Shown here in pieces: positions 2,345 through 49,838 of a DNA stretch of 64,000 bases. Position 1 is the first letter of the stretch. Each line of letters begins with the position of its first letter. The DNA is from Rickettsiales bacterium (lineage in GTDB: Bacteria; Pseudomonadota; Alphaproteobacteria; Rickettsiales; UBA1997): contig JAYORG010000002.1 in the NCBI GenBank assembly GCA_038123275.1, positions 10,083-74,082 on the forward strand, read 5' to 3'. The notes beneath the pieces are model-generated. The model made no database searches. It was not told where the DNA came from and saw nothing but the letters and a program-made list of their open reading frames with translations. Position numbers and translations under genes: made by a program.

Positions 2345-3223
2345 ATGAAAATATTGAATATCTTCTTAGTTAAAATTTTATTTTTAGTTTTACTTTCAAA
2401 ATCTCTCCTAGCTCAAACTAGCCAAGTTAATATTTACGAAAAAGATGGTTGGCGTTATATTGAGTCCAATGGTATTACCAATCATGATACTGGTAATTTT
2501 CCAAATTCAGGAAATCCTCATTCAATTTCTACGCAAGATTATAAATATAAAGTGACATTAAATCCGCAATTTTCAGAAAAAATTACAAAATTACAAAGAC
2601 AGCCTTTTGGAGTTGCTTTAAATGGAGTTCCTTTTGATCCAGCTACGGCAGAATTTTATAATAATGATCCAGATTCAGGTTTTAATGGTGAAGCTAAAGG
2701 TGGTTCTCGTAATTTAGGGCTAGATAACTCTAATGCTCATGTTCAGCCCAATGGCGCTTATCATTACCATGCTATTCCCTGGGGTTTAATAAAAGAATCT
2801 AATTCAAAAGATGATATAACTCTTATTGGCTATGCGGCAGATGGTTTTCCAATCTACTATTCTAATCATCATCAATCAAGCTACAGACTAAAAAATGGCT
2901 ACAGGCCTATTGCTGATAATGCACCAACTGGAAGGTATGATGGAACATACACTCAAGATTATGAATATATTAAAGGCTATGGCAATTTAGATGAATGTAA
3001 TGGTGTAAAATTATATACCAAGAAATATCCAAACAAAATTTATGCTTATTTTGTAACTGAAGAATTTCCTTTTGTACCAAGATGTTTTAAAGGCACACCA
3101 GATTCAACTTTTGCTAGCCATCATAAAGGAGATAGAAGACCAAGAGGAGATAGAAGACCAAGAGGAGATAGAAGAGGTTTTCATCATCATGGAAGGCCAC
3201 CGCCAATTCACCACGAATTTTAA
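2345..3223 (+). CDS. secreted YHYH-motif domain protein with Arg/His-rich repeat tail
   Basis: 292 aa; signal peptide ...SKSLLA/QT; HVQPNGAYHYHAIPWGL matches the YHYH protein family; C-terminus KGDRRPRGDRRPRGDRRGFHHHGRPPPIHHEF. Confidence 0.6.
   Translation: MKILNIFLVKILFLVLLSKSLLAQTSQVNIYEKDGWRYIESNGITNHDTGNFPNSGNPHSISTQDYKYKVTLNPQFSEKITKLQRQPFGVALNGVPFDPATAEFYNNDPDSGFNGEAKGGSRNLGLDNSNAHVQPNGAYHYHAIPWGLIKESNSKDDITLIGYAADGFPIYYSNHHQSSYRLKNGYRPIADNAPTGRYDGTYTQDYEYIKGYGNLDECNGVKLYTKKYPNKIYAYFVTEEFPFVPRCFKGTPDSTFASHHKGDRRPRGDRRPRGDRRGFHHHGRPPPIHHEF
3128..3176 (+). repeat. 18-bp in-frame tandem repeat (ggagatagaagaccaaga x2 plus a partial third) encoding GDRRPR units
   Basis: Read directly: units at 3128-3145 and 3146-3163, partial unit at 3164-3176. 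Confidence 0.9.
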
Positions 3224-31083: not shown

Positions 31084-32511
31084 ATGGCAGCAAAAGATGA
31101 AAGAAATAATATAGATCCAGAAGCTCAATTAGAAGAAATATTAATTAGGGCTATGAAAAATGGCGACCTAGGAGAGTTAGAAGGATTATTGGATTCAGAT
31201 AAGGTTAAAGGTAATCCGGTAATTTTTAATAAATTATTACAAAAATCTGAGGAATTAACACAAGATGGAAAGCTTAAACCTGGTGATAATCTTTTAAAGA
31301 TAAGAAAGTTAATGTCTAGCAGAGCTAAGGAATTGGTGGATGCTATGGATAGTAAAAATAACGATCTTAGTGACAAGGCTAAGAAGTCTCTAGAGTCTTT
31401 AAGAGGTACTTTAGATAAATTTAATGAAAAATCTGAGTTAATTAAGGAGCAAGTCCAATCAAAAAAATCTTCTAGCTCCAAGCCAAAGCGTGAAGAAAAA
31501 AGAAGCCAAGGAGCTAAAGAAATAACAAAAAATGAAAAATTTCTTCAGGCTGTTAAAGATGGTAAAGTTGGTGAGGCAGCAAAATTATTAGGTGAGGGTG
31601 CTGATGTTAATTGTAGAGATAAAAATGGAAAATCAGCATTGCAAATTGCCAATGATATGGGTCATGAGGAGATGGCTGATTATTTAACTAGTATTACATC
31701 TCAAAATGCAGCTCCCAAATGGTCTGGCATAAGAATGATGGGTGAATCAAAATCTAGTCAAGGTGGTGTAAATTTAATTGGTTCAGCAAGTCAGCGTCAA
31801 AGTATAATTGATGCGCAGCTAGAAAAACAATCTTTAATGGCTCAAAAGGCTCAAGATACAAAGGAAATAATGGATCGATTAGAGATGGAATATCAAGAAG
31901 GCCTAAAAAAGATGAGTCATTTTAAACCAGGAGAAGTTAAAAATGATTGGGTATATGGTCAAAATTTGGAAGAAAATAATGAGTTTTCATACTATAATCC
32001 ATACACAGAGGAAGTAGATACAATTACAATAGATCAAGATGTTGCAGAGGTGGTAAATTTATTAAATGATTTACCAGAATCTAAAAAAGAAGAAGCTTTA
32101 TCAAGTATATCTGGTGATGTTCATAATCAAGGTGAAAAAATTTGTAGTCAATTTCTTGCTCAAGCTATTAGAGAGGGCAATGTAACATTAATTGCTGCCA
32201 TAATGGCACAGCCTGATTTTGATGTTAATCAAAGTAGCGGTAGTTATAGCCTATATCAAATTGCTAAATCTTCGGGTAATGAATTTATTCTATCTTTGTT
32301 AGAATCCAAGGGTGCTAGAACACAAGAGCATAATTCTGTTAGTAATAAAGATGCAAAAATAGATAGTGAATTATCTCCATCTCTTGAAAATGATAAAGTT
32401 AAAGAAGTTCCCAAGGTTAATATTGATCCTGATCCAGGAACTAAAATTATTCCTATTAGCAATGAGACTTTAGCAGAAAGACAGCATAATTCTAGTAGGG
32501 GTGGTAATTAG
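31084..32511 (+). CDS. ankyrin-repeat protein (candidate host-directed effector)
   Basis: 475 aa, no signal peptide; ANK units FLQAVKDGKVGEAAKLLGEGADVNCRDKNGKSALQIANDMGHEEMADYL and AIREGNVTLIAAIMAQPDFDVNQ...YQIAKSSGNEFILSLLESKGA; charged coiled regions. Confidence 0.6.
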   Translation: MAAKDERNNIDPEAQLEEILIRAMKNGDLGELEGLLDSDKVKGNPVIFNKLLQKSEELTQDGKLKPGDNLLKIRKLMSSRAKELVDAMDSKNNDLSDKAKKSLESLRGTLDKFNEKSELIKEQVQSKKSSSSKPKREEKRSQGAKEITKNEKFLQAVKDGKVGEAAKLLGEGADVNCRDKNGKSALQIANDMGHEEMADYLTSITSQNAAPKWSGIRMMGESKSSQGGVNLIGSASQRQSIIDAQLEKQSLMAQKAQDTKEIMDRLEMEYQEGLKKMSHFKPGEVKNDWVYGQNLEENNEFSYYNPYTEEVDTITIDQDVAEVVNLLNDLPESKKEEALSSISGDVHNQGEKICSQFLAQAIREGNVTLIAAIMAQPDFDVNQSSGSYSLYQIAKSSGNEFILSLLESKGARTQEHNSVSNKDAKIDSELSPSLENDKVKEVPKVNIDPDPGTKIIPISNETLAERQHNSSRGGN

Positions 32512-34242: not shown

Positions 34243-35262
34243 TTAATAGCATTCATATTCAACAGGTTCCCATTGGCCATTTAGGCCACATTTTCTTCTA
34301 GGGTAAAGAAAATTATCTGGATTATCACTATAACATCCATACTCACTACAATCAATATTGCCTTGCGTGGTTTCGCCATAATATGCTGCTGGAAATTCAA
34401 TTTCTTCTCCAGAACAGCTATCATTATAAGATGATGTTTCTTCAGGGCAAACAGTAATATTAAAGCCACCAATTTCTTGAACTAATGTCTCTCTGGTATT
34501 GTAAGCTATTAAATCATCAAAGTCACTACCTCCAGAATTGACAACAAAGACATTATCAAATATATCGCCACCAGATACTCCAGTTGGTGCGTTATTTTCT
34601 TCATCTGTATCACTACTTGAGCCATTTTGAGTTGAGCCGCTATTAATATTAAAGGCTCTATAGCCATTTGATCCATGACTAATAAGTGCATAGGTAGCAA
34701 CAGTAGTAATGCTTGAACCAGGTTGACCAGATATTGTTTCTTGAATTGTAATAGGATCTACGCTAGATGTAGCATCCATATTTGTTCCTTCAAATCCTGA
34801 TGCACCACCGCTGGCAAAAACTTCTGTTAATTGTTTAGGAACTACATAAGAAAATTTATTATCAAATCCATCTCCTAAATATTCTAGGTTAAGACCTAAA
34901 GCTTTAACAGGAACTGCGCCATAAACTAGGCCCTCATTAGCATTACTATTTGTTGAGGTTAGTACACCAGTTGCAGTACAATCTCCAGCACTTCCAGCTT
35001 CTGCTCCATAGGTAGAATCAGTTGTGATATCATGTAAAGATGCTGGGCAGGGTAATCTTTTATAGGTGTAAACAAAAACATTTAAGGCTTTTTGAATGAC
35101 TGCCATTTTATCTTTAGTAGATTTAGCTTTGGCATTTTTAAGGGCGCTTGTAGAAGCTGTTACAGCTCCAGAAATTATAACTGAAATAATAGCTAAAACA
35201 ATGGATAATTCAATTAAGCTAAATGCTGATTTTCTGGTTTTTGTGATGGTATTGATAGTCAT
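34243..35262 (-). CDS. large type IV pilin-like protein, paralog 1 (prepilin-type N-terminus, Cys-rich C-terminal module)
   Basis: 339 aa; basic leader MTINTITKTRKSA then FSLIELSIVLAIISVIISG (Phe+1, Glu+5, hydrophobic helix); conserved RLPCPASLHDITTD; 8 Cys; C-terminal RKCGLNGQWEPVEYEC. Confidence 0.7.
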   Translation of the reverse strand: MTINTITKTRKSAFSLIELSIVLAIISVIISGAVTASTSALKNAKAKSTKDKMAVIQKALNVFVYTYKRLPCPASLHDITTDSTYGAEAGSAGDCTATGVLTSTNSNANEGLVYGAVPVKALGLNLEYLGDGFDNKFSYVVPKQLTEVFASGGASGFEGTNMDATSSVDPITIQETISGQPGSSITTVATYALISHGSNGYRAFNINSGSTQNGSSSDTDEENNAPTGVSGGDIFDNVFVVNSGGSDFDDLIAYNTRETLVQEIGGFNITVCPEETSSYNDSCSGEEIEFPAAYYGETTQGNIDCSEYGCYSDNPDNFLYPRRKCGLNGQWEPVEYECY

Positions 35263-35336
35263 TAGATTTAGTAGGTTTTTTTAATTCATCTTTGCTTTGA
35301 AGTTTTAAGCATAGTTCACATACAAAGCTTCGCATC

Positions 35337-35365
35337 ATTTATGCTGTTATTTATGCTTTTGTCAA
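35337..35365 (-). promoter_or_regulatory. candidate promoter for pilin-like paralog 1
   Basis: Minus strand: TTGACA (35365-35360), 17-nt spacer, ATAAAT (35342-35337), within the 131-bp spacer between paralogs 2 and 1. Confidence 0.25.
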
Positions 35366-35393
35366 GAATTATTAGATATTGTTTGTTGATTAT

Positions 35394-36401
35394 CTAGATG
35401 CACCCATCTATAGCAGATTCCCATTGACCATTTAGGCCACATTTTCTAGTAGCAGTGCCACTTGAACATCCAGCTATTGATGCACAAGTTTCATTGCTAT
35501 TTACATTTGTAGTTCCATCGTAGTATCTTGCCGGAAATGTTAATCCATTACCTGAAGTTAAGCATCCTGGGCTAAAGTCAGAAGTTTCTGTTGTGCAAAC
35601 GGTTGTGCTAAAACCTCCAATATCTTTGACTATGAGTTCTCTGGTGCTGTAAACTACAATATCATCAAAACCAGAATCATTAGAACTTGTAATAAAAGTT
35701 TTGTCAAATATGTCACCGCCAGATACTCCAGTTGGTGAATTATCCTCTTCATCTGTACTGGTAGAAGATCCATTTTGAATGGATCCACTATTAATATTAA
35801 AAGCTCTAAAACCATTTGGTCCATGACTTAAAACAACATAGGCACCAATAAGAGTTGTAATAGTTCCAGTAGATCTTATTTCTATGGGATCTAAATTAAC
35901 AGTATCAGACATGTCTGCCCCCTCAAAGCCTACAGCACCACCATTAACAAAAGTTTCGGTTAGTTGTTGAGGTACTATATAGGAAAATTTATTATCAAAT
36001 GCATCTCCCATGAGCTCAATATCTAGACCCAGATCTTTAACAGGAACTGCTCCATAAATTAGGCCATCATTAGCGGCTGTATTTGTTGAAGTTAAAGCTC
36101 CAGTAGCAGTACAAGTCCCAGATGTTCCTGCTTCTGTTCCATATGCAGTATCGGTTGTTATATCATGCAAAGATGCTGGGCAGGGTAGCCTTTTATTGTT
36201 ATACACAAAAATATGTAAAGCATGTTGGATGGTTTTTATTCTATCTTTTGTTATTTTAATTTTAGCATTTTTGATGTTATTTGTAGACACACTAATATAT
36301 CCAGAAATAATAATGGCAATAATGGCCATTATAACTGATAATTCAATAAAGCTAAATGCTGATTTTTTCCTTTTTTGAATTTTATTGCTGTTATTTAGCA
36401 T
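35394..36401 (-). CDS. large type IV pilin-like protein, paralog 2
   Basis: 335 aa; leader ...KRKKSA then FSFIELSVIMAIIAIIISG; same RLPCPASLHDITTD core; C-terminal RKCGLNGQWESAIDGC. Confidence 0.7.
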   Translation of the reverse strand: MLNNSNKIQKRKKSAFSFIELSVIMAIIAIIISGYISVSTNNIKNAKIKITKDRIKTIQHALHIFVYNNKRLPCPASLHDITTDTAYGTEAGTSGTCTATGALTSTNTAANDGLIYGAVPVKDLGLDIELMGDAFDNKFSYIVPQQLTETFVNGGAVGFEGADMSDTVNLDPIEIRSTGTITTLIGAYVVLSHGPNGFRAFNINSGSIQNGSSTSTDEEDNSPTGVSGGDIFDKTFITSSNDSGFDDIVVYSTRELIVKDIGGFSTTVCTTETSDFSPGCLTSGNGLTFPARYYDGTTNVNSNETCASIAGCSSGTATRKCGLNGQWESAIDGCI

Positions 36402-36416
36402 TTTATTAGATTTTAT

Positions 36417-37442
36417 TTAAGAACATCCATCTATTGCTGGTTCCCATTGGCCATTTAAGCCACATTTTCTAGTTGTAGTACCGCTTGAACACCCTGTAAT
36501 TGAGGCGCAAGTTTCGTTGCTACCTACATTTGTGGTTCCATCGTAATAGCTTACAGGAAATGTTAAACCACTACCTGAAGTAAGACATCCTGGACTAAAG
36601 TCAGAAGTTTCAGTGGTGCAAGCAGTAATGTTAAAGCCGCCAATTTCTCTAACAAGAGTTTCTCTAATATTGTAAACAACAATATCATCAAAATCAGCAC
36701 TTCCAGAGCTTTTGATAAATATATTGTCAAATATATCGCCACCAGATACTCCAGTTGGTGCATTATCTTCTTCATCTGTATCGCTACTTGAGCTATTTTG
36801 AGTTGAGCCGCTATTAATATTAAATGCTCTTAGGCCATCTGGTCCGTGACTTAGAACAACATAGACTGCATTTGTAGTGATGTTTGAGCCAGAAGATACA
36901 GTTTCTCTAATTGTAATAGGGTCAACATTAGCTGTATCAGTCATGTCTGTTCCTTCAAAGCCATCAGCTGAGCCAGAAACAAAAGCCTCTGTAACTTGTT
37001 GTGGTACTATGTAAGAGAACTTATTATCAAAGGCATCTCCTAGCATTTCAATATCTAAACCCAAAGCTTTTACAGGAACTGCGCCATAAACTAAGCCATC
37101 ATTAGCAGCTGTATTTGTTGAAGTTAAAATACCAGTAGCAGTGCAAGTCCCAGCCGTTCCAGCTTCTGTTCCATATGCTGTGTCGGTTGTTATATCATGC
37201 AATGATGCTGGGCAGGGCAATCTTTTATTAGTATATACAAAGACCCCTAAGGCTTTTTTGATAATTTCTATTCTTTCTTTTGTTGTTTTAATTTTGGCAT
37301 TTTTTATGGCACTTGTAGAAACTGTAATAGAGCTAGAAATTATAATAGCAATAATTGCTAAAACAATTGATAACTCAATTAAGCTAAATGCTGATTTGTT
37401 TCCCTTTTTTTTTGAGGTTTTATTAGACATTATTATTAGCAA
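36417..37442 (-). CDS. large type IV pilin-like protein, paralog 3
   Basis: 341 aa; leader ...KKGNKSA then FSLIELSIVLAIIAIIISS; mostly identical to paralog 2 by eye; only 15 nt upstream of paralog 2. Confidence 0.7.
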   Translation of the reverse strand: MLIIMSNKTSKKKGNKSAFSLIELSIVLAIIAIIISSSITVSTSAIKNAKIKTTKERIEIIKKALGVFVYTNKRLPCPASLHDITTDTAYGTEAGTAGTCTATGILTSTNTAANDGLVYGAVPVKALGLDIEMLGDAFDNKFSYIVPQQVTEAFVSGSADGFEGTDMTDTANVDPITIRETVSSGSNITTNAVYVVLSHGPDGLRAFNINSGSTQNSSSSDTDEEDNAPTGVSGGDIFDNIFIKSSGSADFDDIVVYNIRETLVREIGGFNITACTTETSDFSPGCLTSGSGLTFPVSYYDGTTNVGSNETCASITGCSSGTTTRKCGLNGQWEPAIDGCS

Positions 37443-37542
37443 ATTAACATTAGTTATTGATAAATGATAAAGCGCAAACTATTATTTAGTGTATCACATC
37501 AACAGCCTAATTACAAGATAAATTCACTAACTTTATAATAAA

Positions 37543-38175
37543 GTGTCACATAATAACATTATTGATATAAACTCTTATAAAAATAAAGGAAATAAAAAGA
37601 TGATAATTGTAATATCTTTAGCAGCTGCAATTTTTGCAATTTTTGCCTTCAATACAATATCTAATTATAATAAATATTTGGCTTTTGAAATAGAGGAATC
37701 TAATAATATTTCTTATGATATTGATGATGTAAAAGATGTTACCCCTTTGGAAATAATTAATAATATTGAAAAAGCTGAAAGAGAGGATAATCCAATTTTA
37801 ATTTATTTTTATACAAGTTGGTGCAGAGTTTGTAAGAAACAATTACCTATTATAAATGAAATTGCACGTAAATTTCAAAATACTGATTTAGAGGTTATTT
37901 TTGTGGCAATTGATAAGAATATTACGCAACAAAAAACAATTGATGGTTTACAAAGTATTAAGGATATTTATTTTCAACCTAAATATTTAAGTGATAGAAA
38001 TGGTTTTAAGGATCTTTTAAAGACTAAATCAATAAAATTTAGGAATAGAATACCATTTTCAGTAATAATTGGTAGAAATTCGCAAATTATTACCCAATTT
38101 AGTGGTTATAAAAATTTTAAATATTTTGATAATAGAATTATGAAAGCATTATTTAGGGAAGATGAGGATATATAA
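37543..38175 (+). CDS. membrane-anchored thioredoxin-fold protein (TlpA/ResA-like)
   Basis: 210 aa from GTG 37543 (ATG at 37600 preceded by aaagga may be the true start); TM MIIVISLAAAIFAIFAF; CxxC in FYTSWCRVCKKQLP; divergent from the pilin-like triplet. Confidence 0.6.
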   Translation: MSHNNIIDINSYKNKGNKKMIIVISLAAAIFAIFAFNTISNYNKYLAFEIEESNNISYDIDDVKDVTPLEIINNIEKAEREDNPILIYFYTSWCRVCKKQLPIINEIARKFQNTDLEVIFVAIDKNITQQKTIDGLQSIKDIYFQPKYLSDRNGFKDLLKTKSIKFRNRIPFSVIIGRNSQIITQFSGYKNFKYFDNRIMKALFREDEDI

Positions 38176-39556
38176 TAGTTTAAGTAAAGAAAAAGAAGAT
38201 TTTATTCCTTTAAATAAAGATAATGTTACTATCTATGTTTGTGGACCTACTGTTTATAGCTATCCACATCTTGGAAATGCTAGAAGTGTAGTAGTGTATG
38301 ATTTATTATTTCGTTTATTTAAGAGCATTTTTCCTAAGGTTACCTATGTTAGAAATATCACAGATGTTGATGATAAAATTAACATTGCCGCTAAAGAGAA
38401 GAAAATTTCCATTCAAAATTTAACTAAAGAATTTATCTCTATTTTTCATGAAGATATGGATAAGCTTCATGTTTTAAAACCAACTTTTGAACCAAGAGCT
38501 ACTGATAATATTAAGGAGATGATAGAGATGATCAAAACTTTAATTAAAAATGGTAATGCTTATGAGAATGAGGGTCATATTTTATTTGATGTTAAGAGTT
38601 TTAAGGATTATGGTAGGCTTTCTAATAGATCTTTAGATGATATGATTGCTGGGTCTCGTATTGAGCAGCAATCATATAAAAAGAATCCATTTGATTTTGT
38701 TTTATGGAAACCATCTTCTAATGATGATGATATTTCAGCAGTTTTTGATAGCCCTTGGGGCAAGGGTAGGCCAGGGTGGCATATTGAATGTTCGGCTATG
38801 AGTGATAAGTTTTTAGGTAAGGATTTTGATATTCATGGTGGTGGGGCAGATCTAAAATTTCCACATCACGACAATGAAATTGCTCAAAGTGTCTGTTCTA
38901 ATAAAGGGTCAAAACATGCACGTTATTGGGTGCATAATGGTTTTTTAACTGTTAATGGTGAAAAGATGAGCAAGTCTCTAGGTAATTTTATTACAGTGAG
39001 AGATCTTTTAAAAAAAGATATTGATGGGGTAGTTATTAGATATCTTTTGCTTTCTACCCATTATCGCAAGCCCCTTGATTTTAGTGACAATGCTTTGGAA
39101 GTTGCCCAAAAGGCTATTGATAAATTTTATGATATTATCGATGAGTTTAGAGATGAATTATTAAATGTAAAAGATAGTCAAAATAATTATTTAACACAGA
39201 TAAAAGAAGCTTTAAGTGATGATTTAAATTCTCCTATTGGCGTTTCTATTTTGCATAAAATAGTTAAAGATTTTAAAAAAGAGCAAGATCAAAATAATAA
39301 GCTAAAATTAGCTTGTAATTTACTTAATTGTTTAGATTTTATTGGTATTTATGATAAAAATTATCAAAAAGATTTGCAAAAAGATAATAATATTGAAGAA
39401 TCTTATATTTTAGAGCAGATTGAACTTAGAAAGCAGGCTAAAAAAGACAAAAATTGGCAATTATGTGATAAAATTAGGGATGATTTAATAGCTAAATTTA
39501 ATGTTATTTTAGAAGATAGCCCTGATGGTGAAGTGAAATGGAAAATTAAAAATTAA
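38162..39556 (+). CDS. cysS: cysteine--tRNA ligase
   Basis: 464 aa; YVCGPTVYSYPHLGNARS (HIGH), GWHIECS, KMSKSLGN; 14-nt overlap with the upstream thioredoxin-like gene. Confidence 0.95.
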   Translation: MRIYNSLSKEKEDFIPLNKDNVTIYVCGPTVYSYPHLGNARSVVVYDLLFRLFKSIFPKVTYVRNITDVDDKINIAAKEKKISIQNLTKEFISIFHEDMDKLHVLKPTFEPRATDNIKEMIEMIKTLIKNGNAYENEGHILFDVKSFKDYGRLSNRSLDDMIAGSRIEQQSYKKNPFDFVLWKPSSNDDDISAVFDSPWGKGRPGWHIECSAMSDKFLGKDFDIHGGGADLKFPHHDNEIAQSVCSNKGSKHARYWVHNGFLTVNGEKMSKSLGNFITVRDLLKKDIDGVVIRYLLLSTHYRKPLDFSDNALEVAQKAIDKFYDIIDEFRDELLNVKDSQNNYLTQIKEALSDDLNSPIGVSILHKIVKDFKKEQDQNNKLKLACNLLNCLDFIGIYDKNYQKDLQKDNNIEESYILEQIELRKQAKKDKNWQLCDKIRDDLIAKFNVILEDSPDGEVKWKIKN

Positions 39557-39559
39557 TAA

Positions 39560-40384
39560 ATGACCATGACTCAAAAAAAGAAAACTGCTTTTACATTAAT
39601 TGAGCTTGCCATTGTGATTGTAATAATTGCCATTGTAATTTCTATGGTTGTTGGTAGATCTTATCTGATTGGGGTAGCTAATTTGGTTAACTTGAGATCT
39701 ATTTCAGCTTCTTCACCTATTTATGAAATATCTGATAATACTTTGTGGCTTGATGTTTCTAATAAAAATGCTTTTACGCCTTATCCAAGTGATAGGACTA
39801 TTGTAGGATCTTGGACTGATTCTAGTCCTTATTTAGAAACTAATATTGCATTTACAACAGCTTTAGGTGATGGCCCTGAATTTATATTTGATAGTGTTGA
39901 TGGTTTACCAGCTTTATATTTTGATGGTGGCGATAGAATTGATAGTGCCTCTGTTGAAGCTTTTAATTTATCTGGGCCAGATAGGTCAACAATATTTGTT
40001 GTAGTAAAGAAATATACGCAATCAGTTAATGCTGATACATTTAGAAGGACTAATTTTAAGTTTGAGCTTGATGCATCTAGTCTTAAGATTGAAAATAATG
40101 GTATTGCCGTAGGTAATTATCCTGCTAATTTTCTGGATAAGTGGAACATTATTGTTGGTAGAAATAGTGATGGCGTTGGGGATATAAGGGTTAATGGTAT
40201 TAATATTACTATGACAGATACTGATATGACTGGTGTAATGACAGGTAGTTCTGTTATGGATGTAGGAAAAGATTTAACTGGTAATATTAGAGAAATTATT
40301 ATTTTTAAAAGAGCATTAGATAATGATGAAATTGTTGATATAGAGAGTTACTTATCCAATAAATGGCAAATTGATATTGATTAG
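39560..40384 (+). CDS. pilin-like protein with LamG/concanavalin-like domain, paralog A
   Basis: 274 aa; MTMTQKKKTA then FTLIELAIVIVIIAIVISM; LWLDVSNKNAF, LPALYFDGGD, C-terminal GNIREIIIFKRALDNDEIVDIESYLSNKWQI (LamG-type ending); starts 3 nt after the cysS stop. Confidence 0.6.
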   Translation: MTMTQKKKTAFTLIELAIVIVIIAIVISMVVGRSYLIGVANLVNLRSISASSPIYEISDNTLWLDVSNKNAFTPYPSDRTIVGSWTDSSPYLETNIAFTTALGDGPEFIFDSVDGLPALYFDGGDRIDSASVEAFNLSGPDRSTIFVVVKKYTQSVNADTFRRTNFKFELDASSLKIENNGIAVGNYPANFLDKWNIIVGRNSDGVGDIRVNGINITMTDTDMTGVMTGSSVMDVGKDLTGNIREIIIFKRALDNDEIVDIESYLSNKWQIDID

Positions 40385-40388
40385 AAAT

Positions 40389-41261
40389 ATGGTAAAAAAT
40401 AACAAAAAAACAGCATTTTCAGCAATTGAAATAGCAATAGTATTAGTGTTTATAGGGCTTTTGCTTGCCGGGATATTTTTTGTTAAGGGTAATTTATTTT
40501 CTAAAGCAAAAACTAATAAGATAATTTCTGCTACTAAATATTCTGTTTTAAAGGATATGGAAGGTTTAGCTGTTTGGTTTGATGTTGCAACTAAGGAATC
40601 TTTTAAAAATAGTGAGATGGTTGAGGGTGGTGGTATTAGTGAGTGGAAAAATATTAGTCCTAATAATTATGGTGATTTTAATGTTGTGCAATCTACTTCT
40701 GATAATCAACCTAAATATCTAATGGATTCAAAAGATAATTTACCGCTAATTAGTTTTAATGGAAGTGCAGATGGATTATATACAACGGGTAATGTATATG
40801 GATATCAGTTAGCTCAAAAAAATCAGGTAACCATATTTTCTGTACAGAAATATTATGATAATAATAATGCAACTATCGGTTGGGGGGTTAACACTAATAG
40901 ATTGTTATTTCATGCAAAATATGGTTTGAATGATATAATATATTTTGATTTTGGTGATATTTCTTCTGGAGGAAGAATAAATAATTTTGCGCCAAGTAAT
41001 TTTAATGAAGACTGGAAAATATTAACATTTGTTAGAAGGGTTGATAATAATGGTCAAATTAGAATTAATGGTAGTGATTTTCTTGTGAGTAGTATGACAG
41101 ATGATTTTGATGTTACTGATGCTAGTGTTTTTATTATAGGGAATGGTGATTCTAAAACAGATTTAAGAGAAGTTATTATTTTTAAGCGTGAATTGTCAGC
41201 AAGTGAAATTGATGAAATTGAAAAATATCTATCTGACAAGTGGAATATTGATTTAGACTAG
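40389..41261 (+). CDS. pilin-like protein with LamG/concanavalin-like domain, paralog B
   Basis: Preferred ATG 40389 (MVKNNKKTA/FSAIEIAIVLVFIGLLLAG); the track ORF begins at an upstream TTG (40371). VWFDVATKESF, LPLISFNGS, TDLREVIIFKRELSASEIDEIEKYLSDKWNI. Confidence 0.6.
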   Translation: MVKNNKKTAFSAIEIAIVLVFIGLLLAGIFFVKGNLFSKAKTNKIISATKYSVLKDMEGLAVWFDVATKESFKNSEMVEGGGISEWKNISPNNYGDFNVVQSTSDNQPKYLMDSKDNLPLISFNGSADGLYTTGNVYGYQLAQKNQVTIFSVQKYYDNNNATIGWGVNTNRLLFHAKYGLNDIIYFDFGDISSGGRINNFAPSNFNEDWKILTFVRRVDNNGQIRINGSDFLVSSMTDDFDVTDASVFIIGNGDSKTDLREVIIFKRELSASEIDEIEKYLSDKWNIDLD

Positions 41262-41262
41262 A

Positions 41263-43608
41263 TTACATGATAATACAATTATCAGGCTTTTCTAGACTTT
41301 TAAAGCCATGCCCCATTAAATAATCAACCATTGCATCACTACCGCTTTGAATAGCAATATCAAGATATGATGTTTTATTTATACTTGCTTTTGATATTGA
41401 GCTTTTGGGCTTTTTGTTAAAAGAATTTTTTTGATCTTTATGTTCTAATAGAGTTGTAATAGTTGGTTTTTTTTGTATATCAGGAAGTGACAATATTAAA
41501 ACTGGTATCATTCTTTTAATATTGTCTAGATTACCATTTTGTATGGTTTGTTTTAATAGAATTTCTTGATAAGCTGGTTTTAAAGATGCTAGAGCTTTAT
41601 TGGATATATTTAAAATAAAGGATGATGTTAGTATTTCATTATTTTGATTTATAATATGTCTTGCTGCTAAGTTAATACTTTCTTGATTTAAAGAATTGCT
41701 TCTTAGTAAAAATCCTAAACTTTCAGAATTTTCTGGAACTGCTATCAAACTAACAAAACCTTTTATATTAGGGTTAGCTCCAGATTTTATTAATAATTTT
41801 ATATTTCCCAAGTAGCATTTTCCTTGTACAGCACAAAATAAAGCACTTCTACCTTCTTTATCAACAAATTCATCAAGGAATTTAGCTAAAAATTTTGGAT
41901 TTGATTTTTCTTCTTGTGCTAGATTTTTTAAATAAGGTTCTAAATGTTCTGTGCCATGATTACTACATATATTATGTATATTTCCTAATTGTTCATTTAC
42001 TTCAACCAAATTAGATAATAGTGAGATATTTTTATGTTTGAACATTACCTTTGCAATAAAGGTATTCTTTTGTGCAAAATTAAATAACTTTTTTGCTAAC
42101 ACTGATCTTTCATTGTGGCATATCTGAGTAATTATCTCATCTAAAAATATTTTATCATCTGCTTTAAATGCTCCCCATTCTTTTTTCTCTAATAAGAAGT
42201 AAAATATTTTAGGGTCATTATGTATTATTGTTGTAAGTATATTTTTGTTATAGTCTATTTTGATATTGTATTGAGTACATAGATTTGCTAAAAAATTAAC
42301 TGACTTTAAGTATCGGCCATGTGAAACAGCAAGGTCAAAGGGGTTATTTTTATTATAATCTAGCTGTGATAGTAGTTGAATTATAATGTTGCTAACCCCA
42401 ATTTTAGATTCTTGGCCTGATTTTACTAAGTCTACTTCTAGGGTTTTAATATATTTTGAAAGTGCCTTTTCATTATGGCTATTTAAACAGGCATAAGAAA
42501 AGAAGTTATGACTATTTCTATCTATGGATAATGGATTAAAGCCATTTTCAATTAAAATTCCAATAGTTTTATTATATCTTTTAGATGTTGCATATTTTAA
42601 AAAATATATATTTTGTCTTAATCTATTTAAGTTTAGACTTATATTTTCACATTGTGTAAATATATCCCTTAGATAGGCATCACCATTATTAGAATTATCT
42701 TCAATAGCATTTCTTATTAAACTACCAACATATTTAAGCAGCATTCTTTTAGCTCTTAATAATTCTCTTTTGGTATTATCTTCTTCTGGAAATAAATCTT
42801 CTGGTGTTGGAGGCATATTGCCAATTTTTTTGATCAGTAATGGTCTTAAATTTATGCCTTTTTCTTTGCATTTTGCAAAGATTAACATTAAATTTTCGTT
42901 GCTAGTATAAGTTATGGCTATATTTATTAAGAGATCGAGATATTCTATGGGTGTACTATTATTAATATTTTTTATGCTTAACTCAAATAATCTGTATATG
43001 TCTTTTTTTAATTTGCTTGTATCTCGATAGTCAAAATATTGAAAGGGGAATTCTTCCTTAATTCTAAAATAAAATCTTTCCTCATCACCTAAATATTCTT
43101 TGCTAATACAATAATAGGCTAATTTATGGTCATTTGCTATTTTAATAAAGATCATAGCCATGCTGGACAGAAAATTATTTTGCATGATATTTTCCTGCAT
43201 ATAATCATCTATGGCATCAAATATTGCCTTAATGTTATTTTGTGTTAGTATATTATGGGCTAGGCTAGCAGTAGTAGTCTTTTGATGATCTGCATTTTTA
43301 TTAACATCATTCCTATATAATTGCTCAAGGCGTAATAATTGTTGAGTTAATTTTCTTTGTTTTTCTAATTTTGGATTAACTACGACTTTAGGGCCAAAAG
43401 ATAGTCTTTCTAAGTCTATGGTACTTAAATCTAGATATTGCTCTTGATCTAGATAATCTGAAGAATCAGAGTCTGAATAGCTAGAATCTGCAAGAATATA
43501 GTTTTTAGGTTGATAATTTGAAGTATGAGGTTTTGTATATTTAGATTCTACTGCTTCAGGTTTTGGATTTTTAGATTTTGAAGTATTTTTTAATATTTCT
43601 TTTCTCAT
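41263..43608 (-). CDS. large ankyrin-repeat protein (candidate effector)
   Basis: 781 aa, no signal peptide; Ser/Asp/Tyr-rich N-terminus. ANK-like units include GRSALFCAVQGKCYLGNIKLLIKSGANPNIKG, NPFDLAVSHGRYLKSVNFLANL and SYLDIAIQSGSDAMVDYLMGHGF. Confidence 0.6.
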   Translation of the reverse strand: MRKEILKNTSKSKNPKPEAVESKYTKPHTSNYQPKNYILADSSYSDSDSSDYLDQEQYLDLSTIDLERLSFGPKVVVNPKLEKQRKLTQQLLRLEQLYRNDVNKNADHQKTTTASLAHNILTQNNIKAIFDAIDDYMQENIMQNNFLSSMAMIFIKIANDHKLAYYCISKEYLGDEERFYFRIKEEFPFQYFDYRDTSKLKKDIYRLFELSIKNINNSTPIEYLDLLINIAITYTSNENLMLIFAKCKEKGINLRPLLIKKIGNMPPTPEDLFPEEDNTKRELLRAKRMLLKYVGSLIRNAIEDNSNNGDAYLRDIFTQCENISLNLNRLRQNIYFLKYATSKRYNKTIGILIENGFNPLSIDRNSHNFFSYACLNSHNEKALSKYIKTLEVDLVKSGQESKIGVSNIIIQLLSQLDYNKNNPFDLAVSHGRYLKSVNFLANLCTQYNIKIDYNKNILTTIIHNDPKIFYFLLEKKEWGAFKADDKIFLDEIITQICHNERSVLAKKLFNFAQKNTFIAKVMFKHKNISLLSNLVEVNEQLGNIHNICSNHGTEHLEPYLKNLAQEEKSNPKFLAKFLDEFVDKEGRSALFCAVQGKCYLGNIKLLIKSGANPNIKGFVSLIAVPENSESLGFLLRSNSLNQESINLAARHIINQNNEILTSSFILNISNKALASLKPAYQEILLKQTIQNGNLDNIKRMIPVLILSLPDIQKKPTITTLLEHKDQKNSFNKKPKSSISKASINKTSYLDIAIQSGSDAMVDYLMGHGFKSLEKPDNCIIM

Positions 43609-48808: not shown

Positions 48809-49261
48809 ATGGATAAATTTAAAAAATTACAACTAGATTTACTAGACAAAAAGTTTATTAAATTTAAAGAAATTAACCTTCCTAAAAAGGGCTGGATAAA
48901 TACTGTGCGCACTTCTTTGTCAATGACATTAGAGCAATTAGCAAAAAGGCTAGGGGTAAGCACTTCAGCGGTTTCTCAGTTTGAGCAAAGTGAAATACAA
49001 GAAAATATTAGCTTACAAACACTACAAAAAGTTGCCAACGCTATGAATTGCAAATTAAGCTATGTTTTTATCCCAAATAATAAATCATTTCATAGTATCA
49101 TTAAAGACCAAGCGCGTAAAAAAGCCAAAGAAATGGTCAAAGATGTTAATGATTCCATGGCTCTAGAAAATCACAAGGTTAAAAATAATACTGATTCCGT
49201 AAAATCTTTAACAAAAGAACTTTTAAAAGACTACAATTCAAAAATATGGTCAGATGATTAA
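48809..49261 (+). CDS. XRE-family HTH protein ('mobile mystery protein A' type)
   Basis: 150 aa; GWINTVRTSLSMTLEQLAKRLGVSTSAVSQFEQSE helix-turn-helix; 8-nt overlap with the downstream Fic gene, as in the mob_myst_A/B pair. Confidence 0.65.
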   Translation: MDKFKKLQLDLLDKKFIKFKEINLPKKGWINTVRTSLSMTLEQLAKRLGVSTSAVSQFEQSEIQENISLQTLQKVANAMNCKLSYVFIPNNKSFHSIIKDQARKKAKEMVKDVNDSMALENHKVKNNTDSVKSLTKELLKDYNSKIWSDD

Positions 49262-49838
49262 TTACATTTACAAAGAGGGTCAAACCCCCATAAACGAAGA
49301 TGAAAAGAATGACTTAATCCCAGAACTTAGCACCCAAGAAGAACTAAATAAATGGGAGCAAGAAAATATTCTTGAAGCACAAAAATGGCTTTTAGGAAAA
49401 TCTCTAACAAAAAGTAATATTTTTGATTCAACTTTCCTCAAAGAGCTTCACAATAAAATGTTTAACAAAACATGGAGATGGGCTGGAACTTACAGAAAAA
49501 CCAATAAAAATATTGGTTGCAAATTTTATCAAATAGACGCTCAAGTTAAAGAATTAAAAGGTGATACTACATTTTGGCTACAAAACAAAACCTACAGTAT
49601 TAAACAACTAGCTTTAGTCTATCACCATCGCCTAGTAAAAATTCACCTATTTCCCAACGGCAACGGCCGCCATTCTCGCCTTATGGCAGATTTAATCATA
49701 AAAAAATACCAAGGACAAAATCTAGAATGGCAAAACAAAAACTTTAAATCCTTTGACGATTTCAGAAAAGAATACATCTCATCCTTAAGAAAAGCCGATC
49801 ACTGCAACTACCAAAATCTATTCAATCTATTTGATTAA
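49254..49838 (+). CDS. Fic-domain protein ('mobile mystery protein B' type)
   Basis: 194 aa; Fic active-site motif HLFPNGNGRHSRL (HxFx[D/E/N]GNGRxxR). Confidence 0.8.
   Translation: MINYIYKEGQTPINEDEKNDLIPELSTQEELNKWEQENILEAQKWLLGKSLTKSNIFDSTFLKELHNKMFNKTWRWAGTYRKTNKNIGCKFYQIDAQVKELKGDTTFWLQNKTYSIKQLALVYHHRLVKIHLFPNGNGRHSRLMADLIIKKYQGQNLEWQNKNFKSFDDFRKEYISSLRKADHCNYQNLFNLFD

Follow-up and report, generated by a model that had tools for sequence, protein, structure and literature searches.

The window, the whole 64 kb stretch of DNA that was analysed, comes from an uncultured, ankyrin-rich and AT-rich aquatic member of the Rickettsiales. According to the ORF listing and a six-frame motif scan it encodes five class III (prepilin-type) signal peptides and no more, and the scan found no Gly-1 or other prepilin-like motif beyond these five in the 64 kb. 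The genes and their leaders are listed in Table 1. Each leader is 9–15 residues long, carries Lys or Arg within its last five positions and ends in Ala. In the mature part F-[ST]-x-I-E comes first and a stretch of 11 or more uncharged residues next. All five proteins therefore have Ala at -1, Phe at +1 and Glu at +5, as an earlier note on this DNA had claimed; the ORF listing and the motif scan agree on this point. The Ala-1 codon is GCA in four genes and GCT in one. Two start codons were adjusted: the mechanical ORF of family A gene 3 reaches a TTG at 37442 with the likely ATG start at 37430, and that of family B gene 2 begins at a TTG at 40371 with the likely ATG start at 40389.

Table 1. 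Prepilin-like genes and the neighbouring thioredoxin gene in the window
Feature	Coordinates	Strand	Length	Ala-1 codon (start)	Leader / mature N-terminus or domain match
Family A gene 1 (A1; P0001, identical)	34243..35262	-	339 aa	GCA (35226)	MTINTITKTRKSA / FSLIELS (...TRKSA/FSLIELS)
Family A gene 2 (A2; corresponds to P0003)	35394..36401	-	335 aa	36359	MLNNSNKIQKRKKSA / FSFIELS (...RKKSA/FSFIELS)
Family A gene 3 (A3; corresponds to P0002)	36417..37430	-	337 aa from ATG	37391	MSNKTSKKKGNKSA / FSLIELS (...GNKSA/FSLIELS)
Membrane-anchored TlpA/DsbE-like thioredoxin	37543..38175	+	210 aa		Pfam Thioredoxin_8 + AhpC-TSA, ~4e-11
Family B gene 1 (B1; P0104)	39560..40384	+	274 aa (called as 272 aa)	GCT (39587)	M(TM)TQKKKTA / FTLIELA
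Family B gene 2 (B2)	40389..41261	+	290 aa from ATG	40413	MVKNNKKTA / FSAIEIA

Similarity between the two families is confined to the N-terminal 15 residues. The family A paralogues are mutually 58–66% identical (gene 2 58% and gene 3 66% to gene 1), and the family B pair shares 30% identity. A and B are unrelated families, each with a pilin-type N-terminal helix and a larger C-terminal part. The proteins are large for pilins (272–339 residues). Type IV pilin-like proteins are catalogued under PF07963, TIGR02532 and IPR012902. The Pfam N_methyl model PF07963 (cut-off 21.2 bits) is passed by A1 (24.6 bits), A3 (23.4 bits) and B1 (27.2 bits), A2 lies just under it with 20.1 bits and B2 has no match. 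TIGR02532 (cut-off 16.3 bits) is passed by three of the five, A1 and A3 scoring 24.5 bits each. One of the five proteins is missed by the Pfam and TIGRFAM motif models alike.

The C-terminal parts give weak domain assignments. Family A has a head of the GspG/pilin-like kind, with the conserved core LPCPA...SHGxNGxGA...FDD, and a four-Cys C-terminal module that resembles sushi or HRM domains (HRM matches in Pfam with E-values of 0.008–0.4, the value of 0.008 at the C-terminus of gene 2). Type IV pilins have a lollipop fold, in which a long alpha-1 helix packs against a head of beta-sheet. An AF2 model of A1 (pLDDT 79) shows a 55-residue N-terminal helix (residues 13–67), then a beta head, and at the C-terminus a Cys-rich module. 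A Foldseek comparison of this model with gonococcal pilin is not significant (E 1–2.5). Its C-terminal ~75 residues match the Eph-receptor CRD and the SCR (sushi) domain of CD46 weakly, with E-values of about 0.08–3 and a probability of up to 0.97. The C-terminal region of family B is LamG/ConA-like (Laminin_G_3, E 3e-4 for B2 and 0.025 for B1, both below the gathering score), and the AF2 model of this family is poor (pLDDT 44). P0104 has exact matches in four short Logan contigs (runs SRR26337541, -42, -43 and -45), whereas exact-sequence look-ups with A1, A3 and P0001 gave no contig. Just two other homologues of B1 were found, both with Ala-1, and a tblastn search of family B against phage records gave no match. 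In their overall layout the five proteins resemble "modular" pilins, as minor pilins or pseudopilins that would expose adhesive domains on the surface of a type IV filament.

The thioredoxin gene is flanked by family A and cysS, and this position is the same in a related locus (L018) and in a Logan contig (L001). The thioredoxin could possibly help to form disulfides in the Cys-rich proteins of family A.

Inspection of homologous loci, nearly all of them from MAGs of Rickettsiales or Alphaproteobacteria, shows how Ala and Gly are distributed at -1. In a protein search with family A, the homologues of ranks 1–60 have Ala in 56 cases and Gly in four; the 40 most distant ones (ranks 61–100) have Ala in four cases and Gly in 33. 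Since the seed pattern of the genome-contig scan demanded Ala, fair estimates come only from this unbiased protein search and from the non-seed counts. The latter give 52 Ala against 7 Gly among prepilin-like ORFs in loci of related Rickettsiales MAGs that amount to ~1 Mb, and both residues occur together in 13 loci. Measured against the ~10% Ala (4/37) of the distant, Gly-using homologues, five Ala out of five is far from chance; at the lineage's own frequency of ~93% (56/60) it is what one expects.

The best locus among the GTDB species representatives, a set from which the window genome itself is absent, is L018 (48% identical). It is syntenic with the window in the order tgt-ndk-famA-trx-cysS-famB-famB, and its CysS is 68% identical. 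One of its family B genes has KKA/F and the other RKG/F; the positional orthologue of B2 is 42% identical and has Gly-1. In the MAG CALXSC01, pilin paralogues from three loci (L052, L061, L074) have near-identical mature N-termini preceded either by KSA/F or by KKG/F or KEG/F. Thus, Ala and Gly interchange at -1 between orthologues as well as between paralogues. Taken together, these sequences indicate that Gly has given way to Ala at -1 across the clade of aquatic Rickettsiales and that Ala-1 is not a property of this locus. Such a shift fits the suggestion of the earlier note that uniform Ala-1 in unrelated families has a cause above the level of the single gene. AT bias was considered as an explanation of the shift and rejected: turning GGN into GCN exchanges G for C and does not raise the A/T content.

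That the genes of the locus were recently duplicated, or homogenised by gene conversion, and that uniform Ala is a trivial by-product of this, is hardly credible and was rejected: the family A genes are tandem paralogues with the common codon string TCA GCA TTT AGC, but A and B are alike in the signal peptide only, the B genes have diverged to the identity given above, and the clade-wide distribution contradicts it, Ala-1 being dominant in further pilin families and in dozens of MAGs besides this one.

PROSITE-style prepilin patterns demand Gly at -1. Strom and Lory reportedly found in 1991, for substitutions of Gly-1 in P. aeruginosa PilA, that Ala kept partial processing. This series concerns the same motif position in an engineered mutant with one peptidase, whereas Ala is the natural and dominant residue in the clade of the window. 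Published descriptions are broader. The prepilin leader is described as short, hydrophilic and positively charged (PMC10191384) and is said to end in "Gly or Ala" (PMC10191384; PMC3244431); a hydrophobic residue (Phe) at +1, Glu at +5 and a stretch of ~20 hydrophobic residues come after it. The motif is given as (A/G)X4(D/E), and PilFind accepts [GAS] (PMC3244431). ComGC of S. pneumoniae is a natural Ala-1 prepilin, for which mass spectrometry showed cleavage after Ala15 and N-methylation (PMC3694846). The statement of the earlier note that Gly is almost invariable at -1 was therefore too strong. Pilin signals with Ala-1 are already known and can be cleaved, so that the finding, though real, is for the most part ordinary.

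ComGC shares with the window proteins a natural class III leader ending in Ala, Phe+1 and Glu+5. It differs in being a major pilin of ~100 residues from a Gram-positive Com pilus, encoded in the comG operon together with its machinery, whereas the window proteins have 272–339 residues, carry additional domains at the C-terminus and are encoded at dispersed sites between housekeeping genes. The GspG/PulG major pseudopilins show weak N-terminal similarity over ~60 residues (TIGR01710, PF08334). Against TIGR01710, the GspG equivalog model, four of the five window proteins score 14.8–25 bits, far from the required 88.85 bits and limited to their N-terminal ~25–60 residues, and B2 has no match. The window proteins are also more than twice as long as GspG/PulG, and a gsp operon is absent. 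The motif pair DGFGNKFSY ... SHGxNGxGA of family A is reminiscent of the GspG core. PilB and PilC of the S. sanguinis T4aP likewise combine a pilin module with an adhesive domain (PMC10191384); for the window proteins the corresponding domain assignments are weak, and there is no sequence relationship to PilB and PilC. Pilins onto which an adhesive domain has been grafted form the established class of modular pilins, and members of similar size are processed and assembled (PMC10191384). Leaders of the form K-K/S-A/F-T-L-I-E are also found in L083, a locus of a Campylobacterota MAG. This locus belongs to another phylum. Its MSHA-type operon is complete (secretin, MshE ATPase, T2SSF platform protein) and is followed by seven prepilin genes with Ala and Gly mixed. 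Its pilins are smaller than those of the window and clustered with the machinery.

No prepilin peptidase, assembly ATPase, platform protein or secretin is encoded in the 64 kb window, and the same machinery is not found beside the pilin genes in the sampled Rickettsiales loci. A regular-expression search of the ~1 Mb of loci for T2SS-E ATPase motifs and GxGDxK revealed machinery in Campylobacterota loci only. Eight loci from related Rickettsiales MAGs encode a PilD homologue, at a distance of ~2.7 kb upstream of genes for Ala-1 pilins (for example L072, 7191–7946). These proteins keep the zinc-finger domain A24_N_bact (PF06750, 4.2e-22), with C45, C48, C70 and C73 invariant. Peptidase_A24 (PF01478) has no match at E <= 0.1 in the PilD homologue or its 120 closest homologues. 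The first catalytic Asp is retained (D122), whereas alignment on a conserved Lys places an invariant Tyr189 at the second Asp of the canonical GxGD. Among the 30 nearest cluster representatives this site is Tyr in 17 of 24 and Asp in 1 of 24. A profile of the PilD-like clade gave spurious zinc-finger matches only when compared with PDB sequences. By these criteria the PilD homologues of the related MAGs are strongly divergent in their protease half.

These observations would fit a Gly-to-Ala shift tied to a co-adapted, divergent peptidase, whose remodelled active site prefers or requires Ala-1. The earlier note had proposed such an enzyme, and the divergence of the PilD homologues in relatives agrees with that part of the proposal. 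However, the special enzyme is not needed, because Gly-1 and Ala-1 prepilins coexist in relatives, where they share MAGs, loci (the 13 mixed ones) and orthologue pairs (the Gly-1 counterpart of B2 in L018). That note had regarded Gly-1 prepilins beside Ala-1 ones in the same genome as speaking against its view. Furthermore, the canonical PilD of S. pneumoniae handles an Ala-1 substrate (PMC3694846), and the divergent PilD is known from related MAGs with no tie to the window genome or to the -1 residue. Asp188, which lies beside Tyr189, is not conserved across the wider divergent clade; the PilD-like protein may therefore be a pseudo-peptidase instead of a retuned enzyme. Another, canonical A24 peptidase may be encoded elsewhere in the genome. 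Co-adaptation of the peptidase is thus unlikely, although it fares best among the alternatives.

The two-aspartate mechanism of prepilin peptidases is universal. A somewhat more doubtful possibility is that the sole PilD homologue of these aquatic Rickettsiales has lost the GxGD Asp, now Tyr, and kept the zinc-finger methyltransferase domain, and that the clade-wide switch of its substrates from Gly-1 to Ala-1 goes with this loss. Processing of the prepilins would then fall to a non-canonical active site or to another peptidase, or they would be used uncleaved. If true, non-canonical processing or uncleaved use would be a departure from that mechanism.

It is improbable that the five proteins are uncleaved, that is, bitopic inner-membrane proteins held by the N-terminal helix with their C-terminal domains in the periplasm. 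Their size, the absence of machinery genes nearby and the missing second catalytic Asp in the PilD homologues of related MAGs are in line with this idea. On the other hand, many diverged homologues strictly retain Phe+1, Glu+5 and a leader that is short and basic. Such conservation is the signature of a peptidase substrate and filament subunit and would be needless for a plain anchor. Orthologues also have the canonical Gly-1, and processed and assembled modular pilins of like size are known. Uncleaved anchoring, the alternative offered by the earlier note, has no positive support.

Most likely, with a probability of roughly 70%, the five are genuine type IV pilin-like proteins that are ordinarily cleaved and act as adhesin-carrying modular pilins, Ala-1 being the preferred small residue of the clade. 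The prepilin-like protein would be inserted into the membrane by Sec, and the prepilin peptidase of the organism would cut between Ala-1 and Phe+1 at the cytoplasmic face. Phe would probably be N-methylated after cleavage, and Glu+5 would then aid incorporation into a filament. Ala would have taken over from an ancestral Gly, with both residues still interchanging, and the peptidase of the lineage would take Ala and Gly alike, as prepilin peptidases of other bacteria do.

For annotation, rules that accept only Gly at -1 would overlook the majority of the clade's pilins. Mechanistically, the residue at -1 holds no surprise; it is the degenerate PilD-like clade that might reward more work. T4P/T2SS components have been reported in basal and in aquatic Rickettsiales (PMC10847448; PMC9352585; bioRxiv 10.1101/479196). 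With their lectin-like and sushi-like ends, the several large pilin-like proteins of this bacterium are plausible tools for attachment to eukaryotic hosts, which fits current ideas that type IV filaments are ancestral in Rickettsiales and serve extracellular attachment.

The AT-rich stretch (GC content ~27-37%) carries mostly housekeeping genes (pgk, glyS, pyrG, pur genes, tgt, ndk, cysS, gcvP and ilvD), among which genes of ankyrin-repeat proteins are scattered. No tRNA genes are present within the window. Two ankyrin-repeat proteins, a type typical of host-associated bacteria, flank the pilin-like genes; the larger one has faint Ank_2/Ank_4 matches on identical Logan contigs. The overlapping XRE/Fic gene pair in the long intergenic-rich stretch downstream of ilvD looks like a toxin-antitoxin module. 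Judged from its sequence, the ASPSS(T)/SSTGS repeat protein may be an effector, either secreted or displayed on the surface.

Five prepilin-type open reading frames are located between tgt/ndk and gcvP. They fall into two families, A and B, whose similarity is confined to the first ~15 residues. A six-frame scan of the window with the pattern X-[hydrophobic]-x3-E followed by a hydrophobic run yielded exactly five genuine prepilin sites, all with Ala at -1, Phe at +1 and Glu at +5 of the cleavage site. The Ala-1 codon is GCA in four genes and GCT in one. HMM support is good, though incomplete: Pfam N_methyl matches four of the five proteins (three exceed the gathering score), and three pass TIGR02532. 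The observation in the earlier note that all five leaders of two unrelated families carry Ala-1 is therefore confirmed as written.

Positions of the features discussed, in the window and in homologous loci of other genomes (L-numbers)
Feature	Sequence	Position	Strand	Remarks
Secreted protein	Window	2345-3223	+	YHYH-like motif; C-terminal GDRRPR repeats, then His/Pro-rich end
Ankyrin-repeat protein	Window	31084-32511	+	475 aa
Family A, tandem paralogue	Window	34243-35262	-	339 aa
Family A, tandem paralogue	Window	35394-36401	-	335 aa
Family A, tandem paralogue	Window	36417-37430	-	337-341 aa
Four-Cys modules, family A C-terminal ends	Window	34243-34470, 35394-35600, 36417-36620	-	RKCGLNGQWE...C end conserved
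TlpA/DsbE-like thioredoxin	Window	37543-38175	+	membrane-anchored; weak TraF/TrbB-like matches
Family B, tandem gene	Window	39560-40384	+	272-274 aa
Family B, tandem gene	Window	40389-41261	+	290-296 aa
Ankyrin-repeat protein	Window	41263-43608	-	781 aa
XRE/Fic gene pair	Window	48809-49838	+	150-aa XRE-type HTH; 194-aa protein with HxFxxGNGRxxR (Fic/Doc) motif
ASPSS(T)/SSTGS repeat protein	Window	56402-59431	+	1009 aa; basic N-terminus, long repeated ASPSS(T)/SSTGS tract, C-terminal transmembrane segment
PilD-like	L072	7191-7946
PilD-like	L060	2900-3649
PilD-like	L063	1206-1964
PilD-like	L064	7277-8032
PilD-like	L065	7322-8065
PilD-like	L067	7265-8023
PilD-like	L068	7263-8021
PilD-like	L069	5079-5837
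MSHA-type operon	L083	2888-14880		Campylobacterota MAG

The conserved core of family A comprises LPCPA, GxVP, D.(F/W)G.K(F)SY, SHGxNGxGA and FDD. It is followed by a C-terminal four-Cys module of ~65 residues that ends in RKCGxNGxWE...C. The AlphaFold model (pLDDT 79) has an N-terminal helix of 55 residues and a beta head, with the C-terminal module set apart from them. Foldseek gave weak matches of the N-terminal part to gonococcal pilin (E 1-2.5) and of the C-terminal ~75 residues to SCR domains of CD46 and the cysteine-rich (sushi) regions of Eph receptors (E ~0.08-3, probability <=0.97). Pfam HRM matches at this module are sub-threshold. The module is putatively a eukaryote-like adhesion domain carried by a pilin-like protein. 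Identity between the two family B proteins is only 30%. Their C-terminal region has sub-threshold matches to Laminin_G_3 (ConA-like lectin) and carries the motif ...REIIIFKRALSxDEIxxIExYL, which we take to be that of LamG_3 proteins. An identity as GspG failed, as the four matching proteins scored 14.8-25 bits with TIGR01710 at a cut-off of 88.85. Modular minor pilins with adhesive domains grafted onto a pilin are an established class, and both families would fit it by resemblance. The two groups are separated by cysS and the gene of the thioredoxin-like protein, which is a candidate for oxidising or isomerising the Cys-rich pilin-like proteins.

A protein identical to the 339-aa family A protein is on record (P0001, on an NCBI contig of 176,997 bp), and the family B gene is also found on four short Logan contigs (runs SRR26337541, -42, -43 and -45). 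Scanning the GTDB species-representative genomes with the family A alignment, using a seed pattern that required Ala, gave 79 loci, nearly all from uncultured Rickettsiales/Alphaproteobacteria MAGs of lakes and seas. Many lake MAGs with family A (L005, L008, L023, L024, L025, L028, L031, L035, L049 and others) bear the record title 'Rickettsia typhi' or 'uncultured Rhizobium sp.', evidently assigned automatically and wrongly to environmental Rickettsiales. The closest locus, L018 (uncultured Rickettsiales MAG CAJQHT01), shares the gene order of the window (tgt, ndk, family A, thioredoxin-like, cysS, family B, family B), and the CysS proteins are 68% identical. Related loci contain large VirB6/TrbL and TrbI genes of the kind usual for the type IV secretion system of rickettsiae.

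A protein search with family A as query, which is free of this bias, returned 100 homologues. Among ranks 1-60 the leader ends in Ala in 56 and in Gly in four, whereas ranks 61-100 comprise 33 Gly, four Ala and three without the motif. Near homologues thus mostly carry Ala and distant ones mostly Gly, and Gly is therefore the outgroup state; Ala replaced it in the clade containing the window. Homologues of family B are few, and both others found have Ala-1. Because the seed pattern of the genome scan was biased towards Ala, counting was restricted to the other prepilin-like frames in the scanned loci. In Rickettsiales and alphaproteobacterial loci these gave 52 Ala versus 7 Gly and span several different pilin families, one of them apparently of the major-pilin type (MKKTFSSKKSA/FSLIELSIVLIVIGLL). 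Five Ala out of five in the window is thus what the Ala frequency of the lineage itself predicts.

The earlier note regarded Gly-1 as almost invariable and Ala as merely a partly tolerated mutant. The canonical motif is (A/G)X4(D/E), and PilFind uses [GAS] (Imam et al. 2011, PMC3244431). Furthermore, ComGC of S. pneumoniae is cut after Ala15 and N-methylated, as seen by top-down MS (Laurenceau et al. 2013, PMC3694846). The Gly-1 premise is therefore too narrow.

Both residues also interchange among close relatives. The window's second family B gene has KKTA/FSAIE, whereas its positional orthologue in L018 (42% identical) has QRKG/FSLPE. In the MAG CALXSC01 (L052, L061, L074) the leaders KSA/F, KKG/F or KEG/F stand before nearly identical mature N-termini of pilin paralogues. 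Ala-1 and Gly-1 occur together in 13 loci. Outside the Alphaproteobacteria, L083 of a Campylobacterota MAG holds a complete MSHA-type operon (T2SSB-like, secretin, MshE-type ATPase and T2SSF platform), and the seven prepilin genes after it have a mix of KKA/F, KSA/F and RKG/F. Most simply, each organism would process both kinds with a single peptidase. Ala-1 is an accepted variant, with processing shown by experiment, that swaps with Gly in the closest relatives.

Co-adaptation of Ala-1 with a remodelled peptidase, as proposed in the earlier note, is an unlikely alternative. The window contains no A24 peptidase or assembly gene. With a P. aeruginosa PilD sequence as query, homologues turned up in eight loci of related Rickettsiales MAGs, in each case ~2.7 kb upstream of Ala-1 pilin genes; family A genes are present in three of these MAGs too. 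The proteins (250 aa) give a strong match to the A24 N-terminal domain of bacteria (PF06750, 4e-22) and have all four Cys of the C4 zinc finger. Neither they nor their 120 closest database relatives match Peptidase_A24. The first catalytic Asp is retained (ATD-F-T-H). In the second motif, the canonical GxG-D-x-K aligns on x-F-D-Y-T-K of the clade profile, which puts an invariant Tyr at the canonical Asp position. Relatives that are slightly farther away have Q, E, S, N or R in place of the neighbouring Asp188. The profile was also searched against 1.84 billion cluster representatives. Among the 30 nearest, the canonical Asp site holds Tyr in 17/24 and Asp in 1/24, and the C4 finger is intact in 21/24; the canonical Asp pair reappears in farther representatives. 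One Tyr-bearing representative of a 50%-identity cluster is abundant in TARA ocean samples. From their sequences, these proteins may be pseudo-peptidases or have a non-canonical active site. The Tyr substitution is genuinely unusual and a lead, being the only finding that favours a divergent peptidase. However, it comes from other genomes, which could encode a second, canonical A24 peptidase elsewhere, and Gly-1 and Ala-1 substrates side by side argue against a strict change of specificity.

What holds of the co-adaptation proposal is that uniform Ala-1 is a trait above the single locus; a dedicated co-adapted peptidase is unnecessary to account for it. That the prepilins stay uncleaved as membrane anchors is very improbable.

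In the literature searched, nothing dealt with the -1 residue of Rickettsiales prepilins or with their prepilin peptidase, and the clade-wide Ala-1 preference is accordingly a small new descriptive point. Type IV pilus or type II secretion components are reported from basal and aquatic Rickettsiales and from Deianiraea (published surveys), and in Deianiraea a role in attachment has been proposed for them. The best explanation, with a probability of roughly 0.7, is that the adhesin-bearing pilin-like proteins of an aquatic Rickettsiales bacterium undergo ordinary prepilin processing.
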